64,000 nucleotides of DNA, taken from the IMG/VR virus record IMGVR_UViG_3300031760_000011. One strand, 5' to 3'. The translations under genes were made by a program, and so were the position numbers. Positions within the stretch are counted from its first letter, which is position 1; each line of letters opens with the position of its first letter. Source of the DNA: an uncultured virus (IMG/VR IMGVR_UViG_3300031760_000011). Its lineage: Duplodnaviria > Heunggongvirae > Uroviricota > Caudoviricetes. This document shows positions 1,866 through 59,104 of this stretch, in pieces. The notes beneath the pieces were generated by a model. That model worked only from the letters and a program-made list of their open reading frames with translations, was not told the DNA's origin and did no database searches.

Positions 1866-3173
1866 TTAGTCGATATCGTCATCTTCCTCAGCGGTCTCTT
1901 TACATGCAGCCTTAGCAACTTTCATCGCGCAGCCACGAGAAATGACGTAAGCACGGAAGTACAGGTTGCCTGATTTCTGAGCGTTTGCGAAACCGCGCTT
2001 GAGAGCGGACATCTTTCCAGATGACGCACCGGCGTAGCTTGCGAGACGCTTTGCTTTCTGCTCTGCTGACTTGAGGTTCTTGAGAGCCTTGTCGACAGCG
2101 TCACCAGCCTTCACGATACCAAGAATAGCATCATATGTGAATCCGATCTTTGTAGCGGCATCACCAACTGTGATGTCAGACTTGTCTTTTCCCATGTCAA
2201 GCATGACTTCGACAGCGTACTTACCAGCACTCTCGGCGTCTTTCTTGCCAGGGAAGAGAGCTTTGTAGTCGTCTTTTGTAATCTCATCTTTGAGCTTCGT
2301 AGAATCAGATTTGTCATCCTTGAGCTTCTGAATCGCATCAGCAAACTTATTGAGAGCTGTCGTAGCGTCGACAACAGTCTTGTTCGCAGCGTCCATAGCG
2401 GCTGTAATACCAGCTTCGATAGTTTTTCCATCGGCACCAGTTTTCGCAGCACTGAACATGCGTTCCGGGAAGTTCTTGATTTTGGTAGACGCGTTGTCTT
2501 TCAAGCCCTGTGTAATCTCGTCTTTGTGCTCTGTAAGCCACTTGCGATCCAACTTCAGCTTGTCGTTAATTTTGTAGTAAATCTTCTGGAAGAACTGAAC
2601 GACCTTCGCAGCAAACTCCTGCAAACCACGACCCATCTTCTTGAGAAGATTGTCAGCTTCGAAAGTGAGTTCCTGAATCATCGGGTCTTCATACTCGACT
2701 TCAAAATCTACACCTTCAATACCAGTGATGTCTGCCTGCTCAGGCTGATAATCATCCGCAGAAGTAACTTCTACAGTTGCATCAGGGTCAGCATCGAGGT
2801 CTGAATCAGTCAAACCGTTCGTGTCACCAGTTGTAGGCAGCGGACCTGTACCGCCGTCGAGCTCAGAATCGCTCTCACGAGTAATGCGGCGAACTTTGCC
2901 GGATTTCTTTGCAGCTTTCGCAGCCTTTGCGCTCATCTTCTTCTTGGTCACCTTGACCTTTTTCTTGCCAGACTTTGCCTTCTTGATTTTCGTGGCAGCC
3001 TCAAAAGTCATGAGATTGCTTTCGATATCGCAAAGTTCGCCGTATGCGTCAGCACACTCCAGCGCGATGTCTGCAAGGCTCATGTTGGCAACATTCTGTG
3101 CATCTCCGTATGCGTTATCACCGAACTCACCAGCCAACGCATCTTCGAGAGTAATAGGAAGTATACCGTTCAT
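1866..3173 (-). CDS. Internal head (inner-body/ejection-type) protein with cleavable propeptide
   Basis: TLE, ALE, TFE(x2) motifs followed by amphipathic helix KKMGRGLQEFAAKVVQFFQKI; late-type promoter upstream; paralogous to 54638..55636. Confidence 0.65.
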   Translation of the reverse strand: MNGILPITLEDALAGEFGDNAYGDAQNVANMSLADIALECADAYGELCDIESNLMTFEAATKIKKAKSGKKKVKVTKKKMSAKAAKAAKKSGKVRRITRESDSELDGGTGPLPTTGDTNGLTDSDLDADPDATVEVTSADDYQPEQADITGIEGVDFEVEYEDPMIQELTFEADNLLKKMGRGLQEFAAKVVQFFQKIYYKINDKLKLDRKWLTEHKDEITQGLKDNASTKIKNFPERMFSAAKTGADGKTIEAGITAAMDAANKTVVDATTALNKFADAIQKLKDDKSDSTKLKDEITKDDYKALFPGKKDAESAGKYAVEVMLDMGKDKSDITVGDAATKIGFTYDAILGIVKAGDAVDKALKNLKSAEQKAKRLASYAGASSGKMSALKRGFANAQKSGNLYFRAYVISRGCAMKVAKAACKETAEEDDDID

Positions 3174-5746: not shown

Positions 5747-5764
5747 TGTCTGAAGTTTCAGACA
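5747..5764. promoter_or_regulatory. Palindromic operator-like site (CTGARRYYTCAG family)
   Basis: TGTCTGAAGTTTCAGACA between RBS and promoter motif. Confidence 0.6.
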
Positions 5765-5765
5765 A

Positions 5766-5775
5766 ATTATGTATA
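5766..5775 (-). promoter_or_regulatory. Putative early/middle promoter motif TATACATAAT
   Basis: Recurrent motif upstream of 5728. Confidence 0.6.
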
Positions 5776-10861: not shown

Positions 10862-10871
10862 ATTATGTATA
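10862..10871 (-). promoter_or_regulatory. Putative early/middle promoter motif TATACATAAT
   Basis: Upstream of gyrB. Confidence 0.6.
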
Positions 10872-11322: not shown

Positions 11323-12027
11323 ATGTCAGAATACAATTCAAATCCACGGAAAGTAGTCCGTGGTAAGAGCAGAAACCTGGTAGACCAGAAGTTTCGCACT
11401 TCAGCACCTAAGGCAATTAAGAAGAAATCAAAGATGGATAATATCCCAATGTATCTTCGCCCAGTTGTATACAAGTCAAAGGCTGGTAAATTACTATGTG
11501 CCGAGGTGTCAAATATCGTTTCGATAAATGACAAATCGACAGCTTCAGCATACTCAGCTCAGATAGTCACCAACTCAAAAGGTGCTCGTAAACGCGCAGT
11601 ATTTGTATTTCGTGATTCAAACGAAGGTAAGATGCATGAATCTATGCTGTTCTATGTAACACATGGAAGTTATGTAATTGCTGAGAATCACGTGAATTAC
11701 ATCAACGGACGTAAGCCTGGAATCTGTCGGGTGTTTGTATACCGTTTCCGCAAAGACGGAGAGAAAGGTAAGCGTCGGATGATTTACATTCCGATTGCTA
11801 AGTACAACGCAAATATCTGCGTAAATAACGATCTCGGCGAGTGGACAAAAGACCATGATATCTCTGATTGTGGAAAAGCCCCTAATCCAATCAAAGATGA
11901 AATCATGGAACTCTTCAAACGCAAGAAGATTGAGTTCCTTGAACCTGCTCTGAATGCAGCTTTCGAAAAAGCATCTTCAGACATGGGAAGTAAAATCTTC
12001 TGTAAAAAGTCTTCAATGACTACATAA
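11323..12027 (+). CDS. Basic hypothetical protein
   Basis: 234-aa ORF, RBS AGGAGG. Confidence 0.8.
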   Translation: MSEYNSNPRKVVRGKSRNLVDQKFRTSAPKAIKKKSKMDNIPMYLRPVVYKSKAGKLLCAEVSNIVSINDKSTASAYSAQIVTNSKGARKRAVFVFRDSNEGKMHESMLFYVTHGSYVIAENHVNYINGRKPGICRVFVYRFRKDGEKGKRRMIYIPIAKYNANICVNNDLGEWTKDHDISDCGKAPNPIKDEIMELFKRKKIEFLEPALNAAFEKASSDMGSKIFCKKSSMTT

Positions 12028-12031
12028 ACAG

Positions 12032-12057
12032 AATACTGGTGGTTCGCCACCAGTATT
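12032..12057 (+). terminator. Intrinsic terminator
   Basis: AATACTGGTGG-TTCG-CCACCAGTATT followed by T-run. Confidence 0.85.
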
Positions 12058-27475: not shown

Positions 27476-27514
27476 CCTCATAGCAGCTTAAAGGCTGCAA
27501 ATGTAGTAACTAAT

Positions 27515-27542
27515 AGTCGCTGGGGTTAATTCCCCAGCGACT
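27515..27542 (+). terminator. Terminator 1 after capsid gene
   Basis: AGTCGCTGGGG/CCCCAGCGACT. Confidence 0.8.
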
Positions 27543-27605
27543 TTCCTTTCATTTTATCTGACATTTTGACGCTTTGCCATAGCAAGGCTCCAGTATAGAT
27601 TAAGT

Positions 27606-27625
27606 CCTGACGGGTTGCCGTCAGG
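27606..27625 (+). terminator. Terminator 2 after capsid gene
   Basis: CCTGACGG/CCGTCAGG then CGTTTTT. Confidence 0.7.
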
Positions 27626-27636
27626 CGTTTTTCGCG

Positions 27637-27648
27637 AACACTGAGATA
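27637..27648 (+). promoter_or_regulatory. AACA-N6-TA late-type promoter
   Basis: AACACTGAGATA. Confidence 0.7.
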
Positions 27649-27674
27649 ACTTTAATGCAAATAGGAGTTAAACT

Positions 27675-36325: not shown

Positions 36326-36400
36326 TTTTGTGAATCAATTTGTAAAATGCGTGTTGGCATCAATATTAAGAATTGGTGTAATTGTAGCAGTATATTTTCT

Positions 36401-37093
36401 TTACTTTATTTGCTTCTCGTCATATAAAACTCTACATTTCGTCCATATGTAATTAAGAAACTCTTTTGAGGACACGCCGTCTGGAGCTGAGTTATATTGG
36501 TATATCGAATACTTCAACGGACGGGATGGTTCATTGCTGAACTCGTTATTTACAACCATAGACTCAAGTACGAATCTGAAGATATCATGTAAGTTAGTAG
36601 CTGAGAATACGCCACGACAAGGATGAAATACACTCTCTACCCAGTAATACCGAGTAGGCGTGGGGTTTCGTCGATACATTAAGCCATCTTTACTTTCATG
36701 TAAAGCATCATCGAGCATCCAAGGATATACTGTGATTGTATGAGTTCTCAAATCGTCATACTTACGAGTATAAACCATAAGCATAAAGTTCAAAGCTTCA
36801 TGGTCTTCATTTGCAGGAAATCGTTTTATCTGGTAATTTGCAAAGTCCCAGCATATGCCTCCTTTCAATCTTTCGAAATCATTGTAGCTAAGCATATGCC
36901 AGTAATCATGACAAGGAAACTTATCATCGTCATCTGTCATCTTACCTTTATTATCAAGCCAACCGTATGTATAGTCATTCAATTCATTATACATATTAAC
37001 GAGACCTTCAGTAAAATCTCGTAATCTTTTATTTATGGAATTAGCGCATGAATTAATACGAATCAAATGATGCTTTTCATAATTAATTTTCAC
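36401..37093 (-). CDS. Transglutaminase/papain-like fold protein
   Basis: GGICWDFANY...THTITVY...YYWVES (Cys-His-Glu); GTG 37093 preceded by GGAGG. Confidence 0.6.
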   Translation of the reverse strand: MKINYEKHHLIRINSCANSINKRLRDFTEGLVNMYNELNDYTYGWLDNKGKMTDDDDKFPCHDYWHMLSYNDFERLKGGICWDFANYQIKRFPANEDHEALNFMLMVYTRKYDDLRTHTITVYPWMLDDALHESKDGLMYRRNPTPTRYYWVESVFHPCRGVFSATNLHDIFRFVLESMVVNNEFSNEPSRPLKYSIYQYNSAPDGVSSKEFLNYIWTKCRVLYDEKQIK

Positions 37094-37112
37094 AATATCC
37101 TCCAATTATGTC

Positions 37113-37124
37113 CTGAGATTTCGG
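37113..37124. promoter_or_regulatory. Operator-like palindrome (1 mismatch)
   Basis: CTGAGATTTCGG beside RBS. Confidence 0.55.
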
Positions 37125-37137
37125 GGCATTTTTGACA

Positions 37138-37310
37138 AAAAATAACGTTCACGACGTTTTCAAGCGAAAAGTTACCAGGTGGTAACCCACCTGGTTTTAG
37201 GAGTATTACCAATGTGCTCAAACCATCAGAAACTCGTGCGATTAAGTTAGGAGACCAGAATCGCACGATGTTGATTAGTCGTCGGTAAACTATCAACTCG
37301 CTTCGTCGTC
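37138..37310 (-). ncRNA. Candidate multi-stem small RNA
   Basis: AACA-N6-TG promoter puts +1 at 37310, the 5' end of a closing stem; three internal hairpins; ends in TTATTTTTT. Confidence 0.6.
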
Positions 37311-37321
37311 ATAATGATGTT
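37310..37321 (-). promoter_or_regulatory. AACA-N6-TG late-type promoter
   Basis: AACATCATTATG overlapping the primase stop codon. Confidence 0.55.
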
Positions 37322-38409
37322 TATATCACTTTCATAACTAAATGAAGTGGATCTCTAATATCACCAACATCTTTAGCCTTGGTATTGTAAATGACCTCAA
37401 ACCGAGCATCCGGTACGGTAGGTTTCACTTTATGAATATACTGACGAAGTTCTACATCTGCGTCTGAATAGATTCGAACCTTATCGAACATCGCCCCGTA
37501 AGACATTAGTTTATTCACCATAGGAAGATATCCATTTGCATTTGCGACTCCTGCGAAGATTATTCCTGGATCTTTCGTCATCTTAAAGAAATCGCAATAC
37601 ACTCTGAGTATATCAAATGGTCCTTCGGCCATAACTACTCTCAATGGAGAGTGCATCAAGTTTACATTTGCATGTGGAACCACATAAATACCAGATGTCT
37701 CTTCACCAACACCTTTCTTCTTAAGCATATTCCTTGGATAGATATTGTACTGGGTGTATCTCTGAGGAGGATTTGGATTTATGTCTCTGAAGTTTATGTG
37801 AGTATTGTCGAACGATATAAATCCGATACAATTCTGGTCAAGATACCTGAGCATATTCTTGACGTTTCTTCCGTAGTCTGGATTTGGTTGAAGTTTATTC
37901 GTTCTGAAGAACTCAAATAAGTTCAGTATAATTTTGTACTTACCCGGGTCTGTACAAATATCTGCACAATGTAACCGATTATACAAGACATCTAATTTTC
38001 GGGCTTCATTATGCTCGTTCTTTTCAAGGAACTCATCGTTGATATCGAGCTTCTCAGCAAATCCATTTGCATAACCAACCTTAACCATACCTTTAGTCGT
38101 TTTGTCGATTGATGCAATGTAATTTAAGAGTTGCTCATTTTGGATACCGATATCTTTCGCAACTTTCAAAGACATCATACAGCCACTGTATCCGCATAGT
38201 TTACAGTGATATGAAAATCGTAATATCCCATCCCTTTCATCTGGAGATATCTTTATATATAGGTGACAGTGTCTTGATTTCTTCGAATCTCCACAGTTAG
38301 TACATCTGATTGCTACGTGTGTACTGTTGCGATATAATTGTGGACAGATTGTCGACAGTTCAGATATCATTAAATCTGAAGCTGTCTCATTATCAATTAT
38401 TTTTTCCAT
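37321..38409 (-). CDS. DNA primase (T4 gp61-like; Zn finger + TOPRIM)
   Basis: CTNCGDSKK...HCKLCG zinc ribbon, VMAEGPFD, IYSDAD. Confidence 0.85.
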   Translation of the reverse strand: MEKIIDNETASDLMISELSTICPQLYRNSTHVAIRCTNCGDSKKSRHCHLYIKISPDERDGILRFSYHCKLCGYSGCMMSLKVAKDIGIQNEQLLNYIASIDKTTKGMVKVGYANGFAEKLDINDEFLEKNEHNEARKLDVLYNRLHCADICTDPGKYKIILNLFEFFRTNKLQPNPDYGRNVKNMLRYLDQNCIGFISFDNTHINFRDINPNPPQRYTQYNIYPRNMLKKKGVGEETSGIYVVPHANVNLMHSPLRVVMAEGPFDILRVYCDFFKMTKDPGIIFAGVANANGYLPMVNKLMSYGAMFDKVRIYSDADVELRQYIHKVKPTVPDARFEVIYNTKAKDVGDIRDPLHLVMKVI

Positions 38410-38454
38410 AACCAACCTCTATATAGATATTGAATCATTGTAAATAAAATAAAA

Positions 38455-38480: not shown

Positions 38481-39722
38481 TTACATCTGGATTTCGAAGA
38501 TAAATCTCATTCCATCCTCAGTAGCTTCGGTTACAGGAGTAAACTGAACCTTAGCAATCGGAAGAACGTGAACCATCACAGTTTCAGGAACTGTATACAA
38601 CCAGTAAGGTGCAACGATTCCTGATTTATTCACCTGCGATTCAGGATACTGTTTAGTCTCGGTGCCTGCGTACAGACAGATTTCATCAAAGCTCTTACCA
38701 AGTGAAATGAGAGTTTCGATATCGTCTTTCGAAAGTACACATTCAACGTGAATGATATTTACAGCTTTATCTCCAGTGAGAACTTTAGAAATTACAGAGA
38801 CTTCAGCGGTCTTCGCATAAAAATCATGCTTCCAATAAGCTCCGTATTCTCCGCTCTTGTATACAGAGTATTTGTCGTCGAATTTTGAATCTGACTGATG
38901 TTGGTACATCGGAACCGGATTTACAAGTCCATCGTCGGAGAATTCTGGAAGATTGTAAGACGTATCTTCAACCATTTCCTCGAAGTCTACCATGTGAAAC
39001 TCTTCTTTACGAAGACAAATCGGTTCCTCACCAACTTCAATCCAGTTACTCTCAATCTCAGGGTCTTCACCTTCAGGACAAATCATCGGCTCTATAGTCT
39101 CAAGATTAAACTTGACGCCTTTCGCAGCGAAACCATCGAGAACTTCCTGACTTGGAATATCCTCAGTTGTATTATCAGCTCTTTCTTTGAGTGGGTCTGA
39201 AATCCAGTGGATAGGATACGTTCCCCAGCTTTTCTTTTCAAAACTAGTTTCGATGAACGTGAAGATATTTGCAGCCTCACGATTTTCAATATCTCCATCC
39301 AAGAAAGCTACAACTTTGAATGCTGCGATTTCATCGCTCCACTTAGTCATATCTTTCATAAGATAAAGACCTTGCGTGTCAATAACCTTTCTGGTTCCAG
39401 AAATCTTGCGAAATCTTTTACCAGTAAAAGTTATAATTGCTTCTTTCGAGTCTTTGACTGGTTTTGTAACGTCAACTTCATGAGTTGCGACGTACTGGTC
39501 GAAGCCATTACCTACAGCAAATACGAACTTTGTATTTGCAGCAGTAGGTTCAGCTTCACGTTCATTATATACACCGTGTGAAGCAACGATTTGCTGGTCT
39601 AACGCCTGTGGATATGAATTATCCATTGAAAAACCCTTGAGATATAAGAGTTTTTTACGGCGTGCTGAGTATGTACTGATTTTTGAGTCTTTCATGTACC
39701 CGAGTACAAATGGACTATTCAT
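38481..39722 (-). CDS. Putative virion (tail/baseplate) protein
   Basis: Start MNSPF at 39722 overlapping upstream stop; FVFAVGNG...FDEICLYAG pattern; late operon. Confidence 0.45.
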   Translation of the reverse strand: MNSPFVLGYMKDSKISTYSARRKKLLYLKGFSMDNSYPQALDQQIVASHGVYNEREAEPTAANTKFVFAVGNGFDQYVATHEVDVTKPVKDSKEAIITFTGKRFRKISGTRKVIDTQGLYLMKDMTKWSDEIAAFKVVAFLDGDIENREAANIFTFIETSFEKKSWGTYPIHWISDPLKERADNTTEDIPSQEVLDGFAAKGVKFNLETIEPMICPEGEDPEIESNWIEVGEEPICLRKEEFHMVDFEEMVEDTSYNLPEFSDDGLVNPVPMYQHQSDSKFDDKYSVYKSGEYGAYWKHDFYAKTAEVSVISKVLTGDKAVNIIHVECVLSKDDIETLISLGKSFDEICLYAGTETKQYPESQVNKSGIVAPYWLYTVPETVMVHVLPIAKVQFTPVTEATEDGMRFIFEIQM

Positions 39723-40224
39723 TTGCTTTTCCCTTCTTTTTACCATCAATAGTTGTGGCGATACTGTTCGCTTTGTTACCAGCAATGTATTCAGTAGTGA
39801 GTGTACCCGCAATTACCATTGTATCTTTGTGAGGAAGATCTTCCATGCCAAATACAAAGTACATAATCGTGAATAGAATGCTGGTAAGAACCCAAAACAT
39901 CACAATCCACTGATAACGTCCAATGTTATCGAGCTTACCAGAGCCACTTTCAAGTGCAGCGTTCTTGATAAATGCATTGCTGTATTCGAGACCCATATAT
40001 GTGAAGCTTGCAGCCCCAGCACATATCACAACGTATTCGAGGTTATACATTACGTCTCTAAAGAAATAACGCATAACGACGCATCCGATAACGTACAGCA
40101 TCCAAATGATGACATTGGGAAGTGTCTTCGACTTCGAAGCTCTGATTTCCCGAATCTCTTCCTTGGAAACTTTGTACTCAAGAGAATCGTCAATCTCTGT
40201 CTTTTTTTCTTCATCATCTTTCAT
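39715..40224 (-). CDS. Four-TM membrane protein, holin-like
   Basis: About 4 hydrophobic segments, basic C-terminal tail, late promoter; ATG 40224 with AAGGAG. Confidence 0.55.
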   Translation of the reverse strand: MKDDEEKKTEIDDSLEYKVSKEEIREIRASKSKTLPNVIIWMLYVIGCVVMRYFFRDVMYNLEYVVICAGAASFTYMGLEYSNAFIKNAALESGSGKLDNIGRYQWIVMFWVLTSILFTIMYFVFGMEDLPHKDTMVIAGTLTTEYIAGNKANSIATTIDGKKKGKANE

Positions 40225-40236
40225 ACGAGAACTCCT

Positions 40237-40248
40237 TAGGCAACTGTT
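40237..40248 (-). promoter_or_regulatory. AACA-N6-TA late-type promoter
   Basis: AACAGTTGCCTA. Confidence 0.7.
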
Positions 40249-40262
40249 TTTGCAAAAAAATA

Positions 40263-40282
40263 CGGGCGGCAACAGCCGCCCG
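40263..40282 (-). terminator. Intrinsic terminator
   Basis: CGGGCGGC/GCCGCCCG with TATTTTTTT on minus strand. Confidence 0.8.
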
Positions 40283-40331: not shown

Positions 40332-40727
40332 TTAGGCAGTCTTGCCTTTCTTCGCAGCTTCTTTCTTGTCAGCAGAGTCCTTCTTGATTTTACCGAGGAC
40401 GTCTGCGTTCAACGCGGTTTTCACTGAGTTGGAAATCTTGAACATCGGAACGTTGTGCTCCGGAATGGTGTACTCACCACCGCCGTTCAGATTGTTTTTG
40501 CGTGTAACCGCCGGCTGTCGTTTGACAGCGAATGCGCCGAGCCCAGGAACAGGAACTGCACCTGAGATTTCGCCGGGTTTCTTCGGGAGATGAGCCAAGA
40601 GCTCGCCGATGACAACCTTGGGGATTGCATCGACTGCATTTGACGCACTTGCCTTTGTCTCACCTGAGACATCTGCTACTTTAGCGATAAACTCATCTTT
40701 GCTCAAAAGAGCGTCTACCTTTGCCAT
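40332..40727 (-). CDS. hup: HU/IHF-family histone-like DNA-binding protein
   Basis: LSKDEFIAKVA..., VPGLGAFAVKRQPA..RKN...TIPEHNVPMFKIS; lysine-rich tail. Confidence 0.88.
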   Translation of the reverse strand: MAKVDALLSKDEFIAKVADVSGETKASASNAVDAIPKVVIGELLAHLPKKPGEISGAVPVPGLGAFAVKRQPAVTRKNNLNGGGEYTIPEHNVPMFKISNSVKTALNADVLGKIKKDSADKKEAAKKGKTA

Positions 40728-40760
40728 AATTCTGGCCTCCTATATAGGGAATCTACTGGT

Positions 40761-40770
40761 ATTATGTATA
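40761..40770 (-). promoter_or_regulatory. Putative early/middle promoter motif TATACATAAT
   Basis: Upstream of HU. Confidence 0.6.
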
Positions 40771-40799: not shown

Positions 40800-40813
40800 A
40801 CTGAAACTTCAGT
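40800..40813. promoter_or_regulatory. Operator-like palindrome
   Basis: ACTGAAACTTCAGT. Confidence 0.6.
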
Positions 40814-43872: not shown

Positions 43873-43888
43873 GCCTGAAATTTCAGGC
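43873..43888. promoter_or_regulatory. Perfect 16-bp operator-like palindrome
   Basis: GCCTGAAATTTCAGGC upstream of portal. Confidence 0.65.
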
Positions 43889-46766: not shown

Positions 46767-48567
46767 TGATATTCTCCTTTATAGAAATACCTCGTTTTGC
46801 TGCGTCTTTGACGAGCTTATCTTTCAAATCAACTATGAGTTGACCGAAGTCTGGAAGTTGGAGATAATCGTGTCCCCAACGTACAGGTCTGTCAACCTGC
46901 CAGTTATCAAATGCTTCAAGTACATCAATAGAACCAGGATCGTCCTTTGGCGGATTATTCTGATTTATACTTCCAATCTTGACAACGTGCATGAGCAATG
47001 TCGTTCTATAAATATTGTATGCAACGTTAATCATCGGATACATTGATGTCTGGTCGAAGTCAATAACGAACGGACGAACTGTGCTTGACAAGTACGGAAA
47101 TAACGGCGTGATAATCGGCTTATTCAACATAACAGCCGCAACGATAGCTCCTTTGTATGGAACTGCTGGCTGCTGACGCATAATGTTGACATTATTACCA
47201 ATAGCTAATCCAATCTTGTCATAAAACATCTGCTGCAGATTCTTGAACGTAGATGTCTGGCGGGTCGCTTTTGATAACCTTGTGTACTGAGAGTTGTACA
47301 TCAGAGAGTCAATATCTGCATTCGTACACTCAAGTTCAACAAGCAAGAATGTATCACGGAAGTTGTAATGAGCGTGCTTAGTGAAATCTTTGTAAGGAAG
47401 TTCAGCTGCATTGTCGGCTATATCATAATAATCAACCTTACCTTTCTTCATCTCAACCATACAAACGTCATTCAAACCATACGACCCTAATACACCACGA
47501 CCTTTACGGACGTCAGCATACGTTGCCATATAGTCAATGTACGTTGTCTTACCAGAAATCTCAAACCAGTGCCACAACGAATAATATTCCGCTTTCGGAT
47601 TATGGTCTTCTTTGAAGTTCAGAACTCGGTATGCCGGTGGAACGTCAGGGTCACATACGATATCTTCAATTCTTGTATTAATATGTCTGTCCTTGATATG
47701 CATGATTAAGCGATTAATCATGTAGTTCAAGTCAAACGTATAGTTCCAAGCACCTGCAAAGTCTGGAGCTGTCATATGAACGATGTCGAAGAACCTTGTG
47801 AGAAGTTCAAACTCATCTTCATAGAACTCAATGACTATTTTACAGTCATTAATTGACAATCTAGGCGGTAAGTTATTCTCTTTCTCAAACTTGCCATTCA
47901 TTTCAGGGTCGGCTCTGAGTTCTTTCTCATATCCACCATTCTGAACGTACTCTTTGAACTGTCTGTAAGTAGGCCATCTATCAGGTTGGTCCCAAAATAA
48001 CTGATACATCGTTTTGGTTGTAAAGTCAAAGTATGATAAGCAGTTCACAGGGAACTTTGCATCCTTTTGGTTTCCAAGACCATCAGTCTCAATATCGAAT
48101 GCTGCCTTCTTATACCCACCGATGTTGACGCCATATTTCTTAATAAACTCCATCTTGTAGAAGTCATTAATATCAACATCGGTTTCGAATAATCTCGGAT
48201 TCTGCTGGCATTTCGCAATGAAATTACGCTGCGCTTTACGTCTCTCTTCGGCGGGCATTCCATAATTACTCTTTAATCTGAAGTATTCCTCTTCGCGTCC
48301 GTTGTACTTCGCCAACGTACGGTTCAAGTCCTTATACGGAACGGTAATCCTATCACACTTATCATACTCGATATTATCGAGACAATGTGGGATTGTAACA
48401 TCGGGTTTTGCGGCATAGAATGAATACATCGGATTTTCAATAACCTGAAGTTTCTGTTCACCATTTACTTTATACGAAATAATCAATGCATCATTAAACT
48501 CCCCAGTCTCAGGATTTTTACGAGGGAAGATATAAATTGAGTTTATGAATTGATACTGGTCATCCAT
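46759..48567 (-). CDS. polB: Family B DNA polymerase, N-terminal half (3'-5' exonuclease + motif A); split gene
   Basis: AFDIETD (ExoI), AWNYTFDLNY (ExoII), YNFRDT (ExoIII), YKGAIV, VIDFDQTSMYPMINVAYNI (motif A); no motif B/C. Confidence 0.9.
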   Translation of the reverse strand: MDDQYQFINSIYIFPRKNPETGEFNDALIISYKVNGEQKLQVIENPMYSFYAAKPDVTIPHCLDNIEYDKCDRITVPYKDLNRTLAKYNGREEEYFRLKSNYGMPAEERRKAQRNFIAKCQQNPRLFETDVDINDFYKMEFIKKYGVNIGGYKKAAFDIETDGLGNQKDAKFPVNCLSYFDFTTKTMYQLFWDQPDRWPTYRQFKEYVQNGGYEKELRADPEMNGKFEKENNLPPRLSINDCKIVIEFYEDEFELLTRFFDIVHMTAPDFAGAWNYTFDLNYMINRLIMHIKDRHINTRIEDIVCDPDVPPAYRVLNFKEDHNPKAEYYSLWHWFEISGKTTYIDYMATYADVRKGRGVLGSYGLNDVCMVEMKKGKVDYYDIADNAAELPYKDFTKHAHYNFRDTFLLVELECTNADIDSLMYNSQYTRLSKATRQTSTFKNLQQMFYDKIGLAIGNNVNIMRQQPAVPYKGAIVAAVMLNKPIITPLFPYLSSTVRPFVIDFDQTSMYPMINVAYNIYRTTLLMHVVKIGSINQNNPPKDDPGSIDVLEAFDNWQVDRPVRWGHDYLQLPDFGQLIVDLKDKLVKDAAKRGISIKENING

Positions 48568-48583
48568 AATAACCTCCAGCTAG

Positions 48584-48593
48584 ATAATGTATA
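48584..48593 (-). promoter_or_regulatory. Putative early/middle promoter motif TATACATTAT
   Basis: Upstream of polB. Confidence 0.6.
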
Positions 48594-48616
48594 AACTAGT
48601 ATTTTATAAAAAATAA

Positions 48617-48642
48617 ACGGCTCATCGAAAACGATGAGTCGT
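48617..48642 (-). terminator. Intrinsic terminator
   Basis: ACGGCTCATCG/CGATGAGTCGT with TTATTTTTT on minus strand. Confidence 0.7.
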
Positions 48643-48667
48643 CGATTCCGAATACGACTACGACGAA

Positions 48668-48805
48668 CTAATCGTCGTTGTCATCATCGGAATCGTTAGA
48701 CGAGCGATTGTCGAGCGACCAATCACTCATCGGTGTTGTTGAATCGGACGAGTCAAATGACTCGGTAACATCACAAATTGTAGGCATGTCATCAAAGAAT
48801 AACAT
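48668..48805 (-). CDS. Small acidic peptide (45 aa)
   Basis: GGGAGG before ATG 48805; D/S-rich. Confidence 0.45.
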   Translation of the reverse strand: MLFFDDMPTICDVTESFDSSDSTTPMSDWSLDNRSSNDSDDDNDD

Positions 48806-48910
48806 ATTGCCCTCCCAGTAGTAATATAATTTTGGCTTAAACTTATCGTTGTAAAGTTCAAGTCTCACTTATATCATATATATTTCATCACATTCAAAGA
48901 TACGAAATGA

Positions 48911-51349: not shown

Positions 51350-51371
51350 GTTGCCTCCTTCTATAATAAGT

Positions 51372-51383
51372 TAATCCAGTGTT
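51372..51383 (-). promoter_or_regulatory. AACA-N6-TA late-type promoter
   Basis: AACACTGGATTA. Confidence 0.75.
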
Positions 51384-51399
51384 TTTAAGCAAAAAAATA

Positions 51400-51419
51400 C
51401 CCGGCGGAACCCCGCCGGG
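51400..51419 (-). terminator. Intrinsic terminator
   Basis: CCCGGCGG/CCGCCGGG with TATTTTTTT on minus strand. Confidence 0.8.
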
Positions 51420-51464
51420 ATTTAATAACGATGATAGATACAGATATTTACGGGGAGAGGATAA

Positions 51465-52628
51465 CTATCCTCTCAACGATTCAACTTCATCGAAGAGATT
51501 ATCGAATCCTTCGTCTTTCTTTGAATCTTTCGGTTGAGCTTTCGGTCCAGTAGACCAGTTGCTCATCAGTGCAGAGTTCGCAGTCGACTTTTCATCTTTG
51601 ATTGTGTCTTCTGTAAACTCTTCGGTGAGTGCTTCACGTTCACTCATGTCAGAAGCGTTCAAGTGCGCACCTGATACTGCTACCAAAATGCGACTGAACT
51701 CTTCTGTTTCTTCGCCTTCACCCTTGACTTCATCCGGTGCATAATAACCTTCGAAAAGACCAGCTGCATTGCGGAAGACAGAGCGGATGTCGTTGCGTGT
51801 TTTGTCAGTGCAGTATTTCGGATTGATTTCGAACTGAACTGCGACTTTCTTAACAGGCTTGGTAAGGTCTGCGATTACCGGTGTCTGAGTAATTGCCATT
51901 TTTACAGCGGTCTTGACGACGTTTTCAGCATCAGTATCAACCACAGCAGAACCAACAACGAGCAAACCAGCATCATCAAACATAGACAAGCGGTCGGCTG
52001 CGTCGATATTGCTAATGCGGCTAACCTTTCCGAACTTCACCAAGCTCTTGAGGTTCTGACAGATTTCGCCGTTGACATCATCGTACTTTTCAAGCACGCT
52101 TGCACCAACAGCCTTTGAGTTGTCAACCGTAATCATACAGAATCCAGCATCAATGAGCTCGTTGATACAAGCGATTGCGTTTGCCTGCACGATACCAAAC
52201 TCTTCTTTTCCCGGCATGACTATTACCGGAACGATACGAACTTCAGGATACTTCTTGCGAAGAATGCGAGCGACAATCGGAATGGTTCCCGAACCGGTAC
52301 CGCCACCAGCTGAAGCCGCGATGAAGATAACATCGGTTTCTTTACCGAGAGGAGTCTGCATAACTTTCTCATCATAGTCAGCAATGACATCTGCGTACTC
52401 TTTCTTGAAACCAGCAAGTGCAACGTTTCTGTCTTTTGCGGCTCCCTGAATGTACTTCAGCTTACGCTTGAAGTCTTTGTCGATAATGCGGAGAGCCTCA
52501 AGGTCGTCGTATGACGAATTGATGACATAAACAGTGTCTGACAAACCGTCAGCTACTGACGTCTCTGCGATGTTTGAACCGCAAGCTCCCAACCCGATGA
52601 AACCAATGACTAACTTACCGTCTTTCAT
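51465..52628 (-). CDS. Tubulin/FtsZ-family GTPase (PhuZ/TubZ-like)
   Basis: IGLGACGSNI, GAAKDR, ASAGGGTGSG signature, VDN, T7-loop-like SNIDAAD; start MKDGK at 52628 with GGAGG. Confidence 0.93.
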   Translation of the reverse strand: MKDGKLVIGFIGLGACGSNIAETSVADGLSDTVYVINSSYDDLEALRIIDKDFKRKLKYIQGAAKDRNVALAGFKKEYADVIADYDEKVMQTPLGKETDVIFIAASAGGGTGSGTIPIVARILRKKYPEVRIVPVIVMPGKEEFGIVQANAIACINELIDAGFCMITVDNSKAVGASVLEKYDDVNGEICQNLKSLVKFGKVSRISNIDAADRLSMFDDAGLLVVGSAVVDTDAENVVKTAVKMAITQTPVIADLTKPVKKVAVQFEINPKYCTDKTRNDIRSVFRNAAGLFEGYYAPDEVKGEGEETEEFSRILVAVSGAHLNASDMSEREALTEEFTEDTIKDEKSTANSALMSNWSTGPKAQPKDSKKDEGFDNLFDEVESLRG

Positions 52629-52672
52629 GGTATTCCTCCATAAATATGAATATTGTGTTTCTACACAGTTCA

Positions 52673-52682
52673 ATCATGTATA
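52673..52682 (-). promoter_or_regulatory. Putative early/middle promoter motif TATACATGAT
   Basis: Upstream of tubulin. Confidence 0.55.
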
Positions 52683-52697
52683 CTTAAGCAATAAAAT

Positions 52698-52719
52698 GGC
52701 TGGGGATAACTCCCCAGCC
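52698..52719 (-). terminator. Intrinsic terminator
   Basis: GGCTGGGGA/TCCCCAGCC. Confidence 0.8.
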
Positions 52720-52767
52720 TATGGCAGTTTTATCAGAGTTGCGGAATACTCCGCTTAATGCTCATCT

Positions 52768-53328
52768 TCAAAGATTGAAACGACGAGCCACGGCAAAGCC
52801 GAGTCCGACAGTGATTCCGATATCGCCACGTTTTTCATTATAGTTATCAATTCGAGTTACAGCCACAGGTACATATGCTGCAAAACTCCACTTAGTTCCG
52901 GCTCTTACTAACATAGGACCTACGAAATAACTGTCGTAGTCAGTTGCGAGATTCGCCCCTGCGGTTCCGCCGAGATACCATCTTGCGCTGTTATAATAGC
53001 GTTCTAGTTTAGCAGAGTCATTGTTATAGTCAGTAATAGAACTTTTCAGTTCGTCGTTGACTACCTGCAAGTCTTTCACAAGAGTGACGTATTTCGTAAT
53101 CGTCACATCCTTTGCAAGTACCTGATTCTCGGCAGCTACATACGCGTCTACCAAAGCAGTGTAATTTGCAAGGAGTGAATCGTAGTCGCTGGGGACAGAA
53201 AACTCTATGGTCTCCTCCCCAATCACTCTTGTAATAGAGCTTGCTGCCGCACCGGGAGACTTTGCAAAGACCCCAGCAAATACGGTAGCCAAAATGAGAG
53301 ACATCAAAAGCTTTTTGAGACCTTTCAT
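52768..53328 (-). CDS. Exported protein: signal peptide, coiled coil, C-terminal amphipathic beta-strands (spanin-like?)
   Basis: MKGLKKLLMSLILATVFAGVFA; ...GITVGLGFAVARRFNL. Confidence 0.6.
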   Translation of the reverse strand: MKGLKKLLMSLILATVFAGVFAKSPGAAASSITRVIGEETIEFSVPSDYDSLLANYTALVDAYVAAENQVLAKDVTITKYVTLVKDLQVVNDELKSSITDYNNDSAKLERYYNSARWYLGGTAGANLATDYDSYFVGPMLVRAGTKWSFAAYVPVAVTRIDNYNEKRGDIGITVGLGFAVARRFNL

Positions 53329-53678: not shown

Positions 53679-53820
53679 TTTTCTTTTTCTTATCCTTTCC
53701 CATCAATGATTCGAGAGATGCTCCTTCGAGTCTCTGCGCTTCAACAGGGTCGATTCCAAGCGAACTTAAAGTTCCTTCCTCGAATGTAAGACCCGAACCG
53801 GTAAACCCGTTGTTTCCCAT
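53629..53820 (-). CDS. Small protein (63 aa) with TFE/SLE motifs
   Basis: RBS AAGGAG. Confidence 0.55.
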   Translation of the reverse strand: MGNNGFTGSGLTFEEGTLSSLGIDPVEAQRLEGASLESLMGKDKKKKNEKESAGRNPGNPNYR

Positions 53821-53838
53821 AATAAACTCCTTAATGGT

Positions 53839-55706: not shown

Positions 55707-55733
55707 AATGCTCTTTAGAGCGCAGCACAATGT

Positions 55734-56237
55734 TTAGAAGTTACTCTGTGGCATTGCGTCTACATCGAACGCGGCGGGAGCCTCAGTGTCGGAAGTTGCG
55801 TTTGCTTCATCATCGGACTCAGCAGTAACGTCGTCTCCATCATCCGGAATCTCATCCTCGCCCTCGTCGGTCGTTTCGCCTTCAGACACTTCAACAACGT
55901 CGGCAGCAGGGTTCATGGTCGTGTCGAGGCAATCATCCCCGTCAGTGCACTCACCGTCGTCGCCACACTCATCTGTGGTGTCCTCAGCATCGGCAGAAGC
56001 TTCATCTTCGTCGTCGCCATCGTCAACAGCGTCGTCAGAATCGTCGATTTCATCCTCAGAATCGTCAACAGTATCTTCTGAATCACTGTCTGCGTCCTCG
56101 GAATCATCAGCAGCAGCGTCTGCAGGTGCAGCAGAGTCGTCACCCTCAGCCGGAGTAGAGACTTCCTGAGTCTCCTGCTCCTCAAGTTCTGCACCTTCCA
56201 TTCTTACCGCATCAGCGGCATCAGCAAAAATACCCAT
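55734..56237 (-). CDS. Extremely acidic low-complexity protein
   Basis: Start MGIFAD at 56237 (AAGGAG); D/E-rich, one Arg, no Lys; RME motif. Confidence 0.8.
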   Translation of the reverse strand: MGIFADAADAVRMEGAELEEQETQEVSTPAEGDDSAAPADAAADDSEDADSDSEDTVDDSEDEIDDSDDAVDDGDDEDEASADAEDTTDECGDDGECTDGDDCLDTTMNPAADVVEVSEGETTDEGEDEIPDDGDDVTAESDDEANATSDTEAPAAFDVDAMPQSNF

Positions 56238-59092: not shown

Positions 59093-59104
59093 CTGAGATT
59101 TCAG
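59093..59104. promoter_or_regulatory. Operator-like palindrome between divergent promoters
   Basis: CTGAGATTTCAG. Confidence 0.6.

Follow-up and report, generated by a model that had tools for sequence, protein, structure and literature searches.

A folded, conserved element after the primase gene of an uncultured phage and its possible role as a regulatory RNA

We describe a folded and conserved element in a 64,000-nucleotide stretch of DNA from the uncultured virus IMGVR_UViG_3300031760_000011 (Caudoviricetes), referred to below as the window. The element follows the stop codon of a minus-strand primase gene. Its structure is real: it lies in a transcribed region, on the strand that is sense for the neighbouring genes, and it ends in a terminator tail. 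The function that we favour, tentatively, is that of a minus-strand regulatory RNA displaying anti-ribosome-site boxes (CUCCUA), present as the 3' end of the primase transcript and probably made from a late promoter of its own as well. The minus strand was chosen because the flanking genes, the U-tail, the third hairpin and the promoter motif all lie on it, and because the plus strand holds no promoter-like site.

The window is part of a giant phage and carries genes for topoisomerase II, DNA polymerase, an RNA polymerase beta-like piece, major head protein, terminase and head protease. Near-identical DNA is present in runs labelled as bovine and other gut metagenomes from 15 studies, and 19 DNA runs contain the stretch around the element. 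The gene adjoining the element (37321–38415, minus strand) matched phrog_19847 with E 1e-36, which bears out the name primase given to it in an initial annotation made from the sequence alone; its product is 24–31% identical to the primases of AR9, PBS1, phiR1-37 and Staphylococcus jumbo phages. The ORF-free gap that this annotation had placed after the primase stop is real and contains a strongly folded element. At 37106–37320 it is the largest intergenic gap in the window, measuring 215 nt to the longest open reading frame (ORF) downstream, or about 227 nt if the downstream gene, the ORFan 36401–37093, begins at the GTG suggested by a 230-aa database twin. No protein family was matched by the gap itself. 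A 68-aa minus-strand ORF (37090–37296) was rejected as a gene, as it has neither a protein family match nor a ribosome site.

Fold, strain conservation and distribution

The minus strand of the element folds with a minimum free energy (MFE) of -61.7 kcal/mol and the plus strand with -58.3 kcal/mol (z about -5.1 for each), and 0 of 200 dinucleotide shuffles folded as well in either case. On the minus strand, ViennaRNA predicts a 12-bp clamp helix around four hairpins, a fold that is unchanged in 271-nt and 341-nt contexts. By MFE and pair probabilities, the 5' strand of the clamp (ACGACG + AAGCGA, 37298–37309) pairs with a 3' strand (UCGCUU + CGUCGU, 37151–37167) that is interrupted by the 5-nt bulge GAAAA, so that 37304–37309 pair with 37151–37156 and 37298–37303 with 37162–37167. 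The clamp alone is worth -16.8 kcal/mol; a helix at least as strong arose in 7 of 2000 pairs of shuffled flanks and in 6 of 2000 pairs drawn from the genome with identical geometry. Within it, hairpin 1 (37270–37297) consists of 6 bp, a one-base bulge, 3 bp and a 9-nt loop, and hairpin 2 (37234–37268) of a 10-bp stem with a weak 3-bp tip that carries CUCCUA (37253–37248). Hairpin 3 (37205–37233) is weaker, includes G-U pairs and is predicted on the minus strand only, and hairpin 4 (37174–37195) is a 9-bp GC-rich stem followed by UAACUUUUCGCUUGAAAAC. The clamp and hairpins 1, 2 and 4 had been drawn in the initial annotation and were recovered at the same positions; hairpin 3 is new. Compared with 1388 sliding 184-nt windows per strand, with energy regressed on GC content, the element has a residual of about -18 kcal/mol (z about -2.8).

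The strongest fold relative to GC in the window lies elsewhere, at 48531–48806 on the minus strand (z about -4.1), and takes in the gaps on either side of a 66-aa ORF that precedes the DNA polymerase gene. A 199-nt gap after a major-head-protein-like gene (27476–27674, plus strand) is also among the best-folding stretches; there, two terminator hairpins flank a unit of ~90 nt with another hairpin, and the late promoter AACACTGAGATA comes next.

A fold that is equally strong on both strands and adjoins the primase gene would also suit an element acting as DNA, for example through stem-loops in single-stranded DNA that signal priming or an origin, or that serve as a site of recombination. We consider this very improbable, since GC skew has no inflection at the element and tracks gene orientation only, no repeat copy occurs in the window, and the promoter motif, U-tail and RNA contig presented below are better explained by an RNA.

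Strain X3, which is ~2% diverged, has 36 coding differences, of which 33 change a third codon position (5.7% of all third positions). For the 174-nt element, one difference is listed in this strain (37295 A>G, in the stem of hairpin 1) and at most 3 are possible, compared with 9.8 expected at the synonymous-site rate (P 6e-4, or 0.012 if both unlisted differences lie inside). These counts support purifying selection on the sequence of the element among strains, and loops and linkers are as conserved in X3 as stems. The strain represented by the RNA contig has two indels in hairpin 1, the loss of its bulge base T37276 and an extra A after 37286 that lengthens the loop, and neither conflicts with the structure.

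Relatives of the primase comprise about 20 at 40–55% identity and one cluster at 99%. Megablast of 36400–38420 against GenBank phages gave no match, and a blastn search with the element in 95 loci of primase relatives hit the primase coding end and not the element. A covariance model of the element found nothing in these 95 loci or in the 268-kb record of the relative G001, and an exact 23-nt core gave 0 matches in viral_contigs and 0 in genome_contigs. The downstream ORFan forms one protein cluster (98% identity) with no relative in viral_contigs, and is confined to this species. In the six closest loci fetched (41–53% primase identity), the DNA after the primase gene is ORF-poor with tRNA genes in two cases and carries a gene of ~470–510 aa in the others. 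As the relatives' DNA differs after the primase gene and the ORFan is confined to this species, the element is a lineage-specific insertion.

Such confinement is what would be expected of an insertion relic that folds by chance and has no function, given that relatives have tRNA genes or a ~470-aa gene in this place. We see very little chance of this, because divergence in the element is far below the synonymous-site rate and the clamp is significant in its own right.

The ORF-poor stretches belong to the two closest primase relatives (L001, 1380–2740; L002, 4075–5275) and have one called tRNA each, for Gln and Asp respectively. Each stretch also contains several further T-arm-like motifs (GGTTCRAnTCC) that ARAGORN did not call and that may mark unusual or intron-bearing tRNA genes. 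L002 further carries, upstream of its primase gene, a 48%-identical homologue of a real 185-aa ORF of the window (39715–40272, minus strand). This ORF overlaps the long, TTG-started form of a 443-aa ORF, and for that reason the true start of the latter is probably further downstream.

Transcription signals and RNA library contigs

A late-promoter-type motif, AACATCATTATG (AACA-N6-T-G, minus strand, 37310–37321), overlaps the primase stop codon (37323–37321), the last base of which is the first A of the motif. It matches the late consensus of AR9, AACA-(6N)-TA/G, in which, in the available text of the AR9 study (PMC5312081), the last base is the start site and G is allowed at +1. The motif proposed in the initial annotation is thus a legitimate match, and its predicted +1 is G37310, one base ahead of the clamp. 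The chance of an AACA-N6-T[AG] site within 2 nt of the clamp is ~0.002, from 43 sites in 128,000 strand positions. AACA-N6-TG occurs at 13 sites in the whole window, including AACATCATTATG. Of the 54 listed gene ends, three (12027, 37321 and 55734) share the geometry in which the last A of TAA is the first A of the motif.

The two other gene ends with this geometry differ in their surroundings. At 55723–55736 (minus strand), an RNA from the predicted start would be ~55 nt long and would contain a small hairpin followed by its terminator. At 12025–12038 (plus strand), the predicted start, 12038, falls within a terminator stem.

The phage clearly uses an AACA-N6-T[AT] promoter class, judging from the placement of its sites: 19 of 68 are intergenic against 3.8 expected in the window, and 10 of these 19, all ending in TA, lie 18–41 nt before gene starts, including those of a virion protein, the head protease and neighbours of the major head protein. 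AACA is depleted twofold in the window (374 occurrences against 715 ± 26 in dinucleotide shuffles) and its permutations are not, which fits a sequence read by the phage polymerase and selection against stray late-promoter cores. A second motif, TATACATWAT, has five copies (638–647, 5766–5775, 10862–10871, 40761–40770 and 48584–48593), all intergenic and 5–38 nt before a gene start, often followed by N6-G; it precedes the topoisomerase II, DNA polymerase and HU-like genes. By analogy with AR9, whose early promoter consensus is AT-rich in the available part of the same study (PMC5312081), this is probably the early-promoter class of the phage.

A palindrome, CTGA-N4-TCAG, stands beside promoters in at least five intergenic regions (5750–5761, 37110–37127, 40801–40812, 43875–43886 and 59093–59104) and could be an operator or a small RNA hairpin. 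In the copy downstream of the element, strains X3 and X19 share three linked changes (37117, 37120 and 37123) that turn the palindrome's centre around and leave it with perfectly matching arms, which looks like a template-switch event.

The 3' end of the element carries a terminator-type tail, UUAUUUUUU (37137–37145, minus strand), recognised by its recurrence after terminator hairpins. The sequence TTATTTTTT at 37145–37137 has nine copies in the window against 1.6 expected, and 7 of the 8 other copies follow terminator hairpins, in agreement with the shared tail noted in the initial annotation. The terminator scan called none in 37106–37320; the clamp ends ~4 nt before the tail, and the RNA contig stops inside the tail. 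Other terminators of the window are single GC-rich hairpins of 20–30 nt that abut the tail. Hairpin 4 resembles the standard terminator-plus-late-promoter module of this phage, with a degraded T-run and AACG instead of AACA, and together with the trailing UAACUUUUCGCUUGAAAAC it aligns with the terminator modules 51370–51529 and 52663–52847 (model R1). It was not called by the terminator scan, and the RNA contig runs through it.

The RNA evidence consists of contigs from one metatranscriptome run (X20) over the 2-kb stretch 36400–38420. A 217-nt contig covers 37140–37356 and a 174-nt contig covers 37395–37568, with nothing else in the stretch covered; the gaps at 36400–37139 and 37569–38420 are not evidence of silence. 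The first contig reaches into the primase gene, so the RNA domain exists at least as the 3' end of the primase transcript. Its other end, 37140, falls after the third base of the final U6 run, consistent with transcription that passes through hairpin 4 and terminates in the run.

These contigs bear directly on the main rival explanation, which we rate as somewhat unlikely: that the element is a passive 3' untranslated region (3'UTR) of the primase gene, serving as terminator and as a shield against 3' exonucleases, with hairpin 4 a decayed terminator, the clamp and U-tail the working one, and the CUCCUA boxes incidental. This would account for an RNA contig that is continuous with the 3' coding end of the primase gene and stops in the U-run, and for the restriction of contigs to the 3' part of that gene (37140–37568), as expected of a protected 3' fragment. 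It would equally suit the alignment of hairpin 4 and tail to ordinary terminator modules, the identity of the tail with the terminator tail of the phage, and the many other intergenic regions that are as structured. However, the other terminators are single 20–30-nt hairpins, and 130 extra conserved nucleotides would be left unexplained, among them loops and linkers conserved like stems in X3. A passive 3'UTR would also leave to chance the position of the promoter motif with +1 one base from the clamp (~0.002) and the presence of two sense-strand anti-ribosome-site boxes that are unique in the window. If the element were only a 3'UTR stabiliser, it would be an ordinary, though unusually elaborate, terminator region.

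The same signals could instead belong to a 5' leader or attenuator of the ORFan 36401–37093, with the late promoter at 37321–37310 driving the ORFan and the fold and U-tail setting read-through or translation. Neither TATACATWAT nor AACA-N6-TA occurs between the U-tail and the ORFan start, where there is a partial ACATAAT only, and a small hairpin that might form beside the U-tail as an alternative would share bases with the 3' strand of the clamp. That hairpin is worth only -2.7 kcal/mol and the clamp -16.8; no match to a riboswitch or leader family was found, and the ORFan has no RNA contigs, which is weak evidence. Masking of the ORFan's own ribosome site by the CUCCUA boxes was considered and rejected: when its start region is co-folded, its Shine-Dalgarno sequence is left unpaired with the boxes. 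We regard a leader function as quite improbable.

Anti-ribosome-site boxes and a candidate target

CTCCTAA occurs twice on the minus strand of the element, in the apical loop of hairpin 2 (37253–37247) and in a linker (37203–37197), as the initial annotation had reported. Both CUCCUA boxes are predicted to be unpaired, with a probability of ~0.5–0.9. The linker copy is part of CAU-N8-CUCCUAA (37197–37214, minus strand), which, by its sequence and unpaired probabilities, mirrors a Shine-Dalgarno site, an 8-nt spacer and AUG; here CUCCUAA is unpaired, and CAU belongs to the 3' arm of hairpin 3. Among the 15 intergenic CTCCTA sites of the window, 11 complement real ribosome sites of opposite-strand genes and two lie in a palindromic terminator. 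Only the two in the element sit on the sense strand of their neighbours.

A scan of the gene start regions of the window, with controls by ungapped score, gave a single long match and with it a candidate target. Positions 37262–37248 (GAUUCUGGUCUCCUA, hairpin 2) are predicted to form a 15-bp duplex with UAGGAGGCCAGAAUU that includes two G-U pairs (-24.8 kcal/mol). UAGGAGGCCAGAAUU, followed by AUG (40725–40742, minus strand), forms the start region of gene 40332–40727, which encodes an HU-like DNA-binding protein (PF00216, E 3.4e-11) and stands behind the early-type motif TATACATAAT. The pairing was matched by 8 of 400 shuffles that keep CUCCUA and by 4 of 400 random genomic 184-mers. It is weakly significant, and we treat the start region of the HU-like gene as a lead, not a finding.

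On the reading that we tentatively favour, the element would give rise to an RNA domain of ~170 nt with its 5' and 3' ends held by the 12-bp clamp, four hairpins inside and a U-tail at its end. Besides its presence as the 3' end of the primase transcript, a separate RNA of ~171–174 nt would be made late from the AACA-N6-TG promoter that overlaps the primase stop. The clamp would shield both RNA ends, and the exposed CUCCUA(A) boxes would pair with the Shine-Dalgarno or start regions of mRNAs and stop ribosome binding, in analogy to streptococcal csRNAs and Firmicute small RNAs with C-rich loops. The best target candidate in the window would be the early HU-like gene 40332–40727, contacted over 15 bp by the loop of hairpin 2.

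Several observations weigh against a regulatory RNA of this kind. The presence of the element in the RNA library, with an end in the U-tail, supports the initial annotation in part; the discrete transcript that it proposed is weakened, as the only RNA contig over the element starts 46 nt upstream of the proposed +1 (37310), inside the primase gene. The X20 contigs give no strand, true ends or level, and DNA carry-over is possible. All ten well-placed late promoters end in TA and none in TG, and about a dozen other stretches of the window, mostly terminator-bearing intergenic regions, fold equally well or better. The X3 comparison covers 40 of the 42 differences in that strain, 71 differences across four runs lie outside the listing, and nothing is inferred for X2, X19 and most of X20. 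No homologue of the element was found outside this phage species in all searches. As the start regions of this phage resemble each other, the HU pairing comes no higher than third among 62 intergenic-strand queries. In the relative G001 (41% primase identity), where the HU gene adjoins the primase gene, the best intergenic partner helix is at background (weight 25). Finally, the one stem substitution seen, 37295 A>G in X3, leaves A opposite C on the minus strand, a mismatch, but gives a G-U pair on the plus strand; and both boxes, when read as their complements on the plus strand, resemble ribosome sites before ATG, opening ORFs of 12 and 6 codons.

These last two points are also what favours an active plus strand, either as an AGGAG-presenting sponge of the CsrA type or as two tiny ORFs (12 and 6 codons) behind TTAGGAG sites: TTAGGAG-N8-ATG has the ideal ribosome-site geometry for this phage, and the substitution at 37295 keeps a pair, G-U, only on that strand. 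On the plus strand of the element there is no promoter of the early, late or sigma-70-like type and no terminator, and its GGA sites number two only; neither the gap nor the 68-aa minus-strand ORF has a protein family match. A CsrA/RsmA sponge (CsrB, RsmY/Z), the plus-strand alternative offered in the initial annotation, is unsupported: such RNAs display numerous GGA motifs in the loops of hairpins, and the element has only two AGGAG/GGA sites, no plus-strand promoter and no CsrB/RsmY-type match in Rfam. For plus-strand activity in either form we see the faintest of prospects.

Elsewhere in the window, a 160-nt "gap" at 53679–53838 (minus strand) has AAGGAG-N7-ATG at its start and is not non-coding DNA by its appearance: it looks like a small ORF that lacks annotation. 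Two 54-nt inverted repeats (1637–1690 and 2673–2726), 93% complementary and 982 nt apart, have one arm in a gene end and the other within the 435-aa ORF 1866–3173. Positions 1–276 hold a tandem array of 27-nt units, with seven overlapping 114-nt copies at 72–94% identity, inside an open-ended ORF.

Implications and comparison with known systems

Jumbo phages transcribe their genes with RNA polymerases of their own and depend little on transcription by the host, so that control at the level of translation is a plausible, unexplored layer. To our knowledge, the regulatory RNAs of lytic and jumbo phages are barely described. In the available text of a phiKZ transcriptome study (PMC8244752), a single 75-nt small RNA was predicted and a Northern blot did not confirm it. 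A broader proposal, which we regard as decidedly unlikely, is that AR9-like jumbo phages of the ruminant gut use small RNAs made from late promoters and clamped at both ends as translational switches, acting here on the early HU-like gene and loosely on other UAGGAG starts. If so, translation of the early module would be turned off once late transcription starts, and an RNA made by the late polymerase that masks early ribosome sites would provide a simple early-to-late switch. With RNA and candidate target located in one 4-kb stretch, this would be a directly testable case.

The initial annotation did not recognise a known RNA family in the element, and the Rfam scan agrees: at gathering thresholds there was no match in the window, and the loci of six relatives gave only tRNAs. 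With E up to 10, only sub-threshold csRNA, SNORD58 and thermometer matches appeared, and none to tRNA; ARAGORN found 0 tRNA or tmRNA genes in the window. The best match was to csRNA (RF02379), at 18.3 bits against a threshold of 57 (E 7.2), on 37266–37170 of the minus strand. In the available text of the csRNA study (PMC3091779), these RNAs are built from a hairpin, an unpaired stretch complementary to the Shine-Dalgarno sequence and AUG, and a terminal GC-rich hairpin, and are expressed from a CiaR-activated promoter (TTTAAG-N5-TTTAAG). The CiaR box has seven matches with at most two mismatches in the window (9.5 expected) and 0 within 37300–37400. Identity with csRNA was rejected, as the score is far below threshold and no CiaR box is nearby.

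The likeness to the csRNAs of Streptococcus is thus one of design only. The element has a hairpin with CUCCUA in its loop (hairpin 2), CAU-N8-CUCCUAA with its CUCCUAA part unpaired between hairpins 3 and 4, and then a GC-rich hairpin, and in the alignment it presents CUCCUAAC in a manner identical to the csRNA consensus. Unlike csRNAs, it is twice as long, has two extra hairpins and the clamp helix, is phage-borne and carries a promoter motif of phage-polymerase type. Like the late units of AR9, it has the AACA-(6N)-TA/G consensus, including G at +1. The available text on AR9 (PMC5312081) reports internal and antisense late promoters and late non-coding and antisense transcripts; it contains no account of a structured RNA with anti-ribosome-site boxes like the element, and the term "small RNA" is absent from the main text. 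The ordinary terminators of the phage share the TTATTTTTT tail with the element, and their stems resemble hairpin 4, whereas the element has a 165-nt multibranch domain before the tail in place of a single abutting hairpin.

Firmicute small RNAs of the RsaE/RoxS type use C-rich boxes in single-stranded loops to pair with Shine-Dalgarno sites. The element differs from them in having no sequence or Rfam similarity, in the CUCCUA composition of its boxes instead of CCCC runs and in being phage-borne; like them, it has several C-rich single-stranded boxes that appear to be aimed at ribosome-binding sites.

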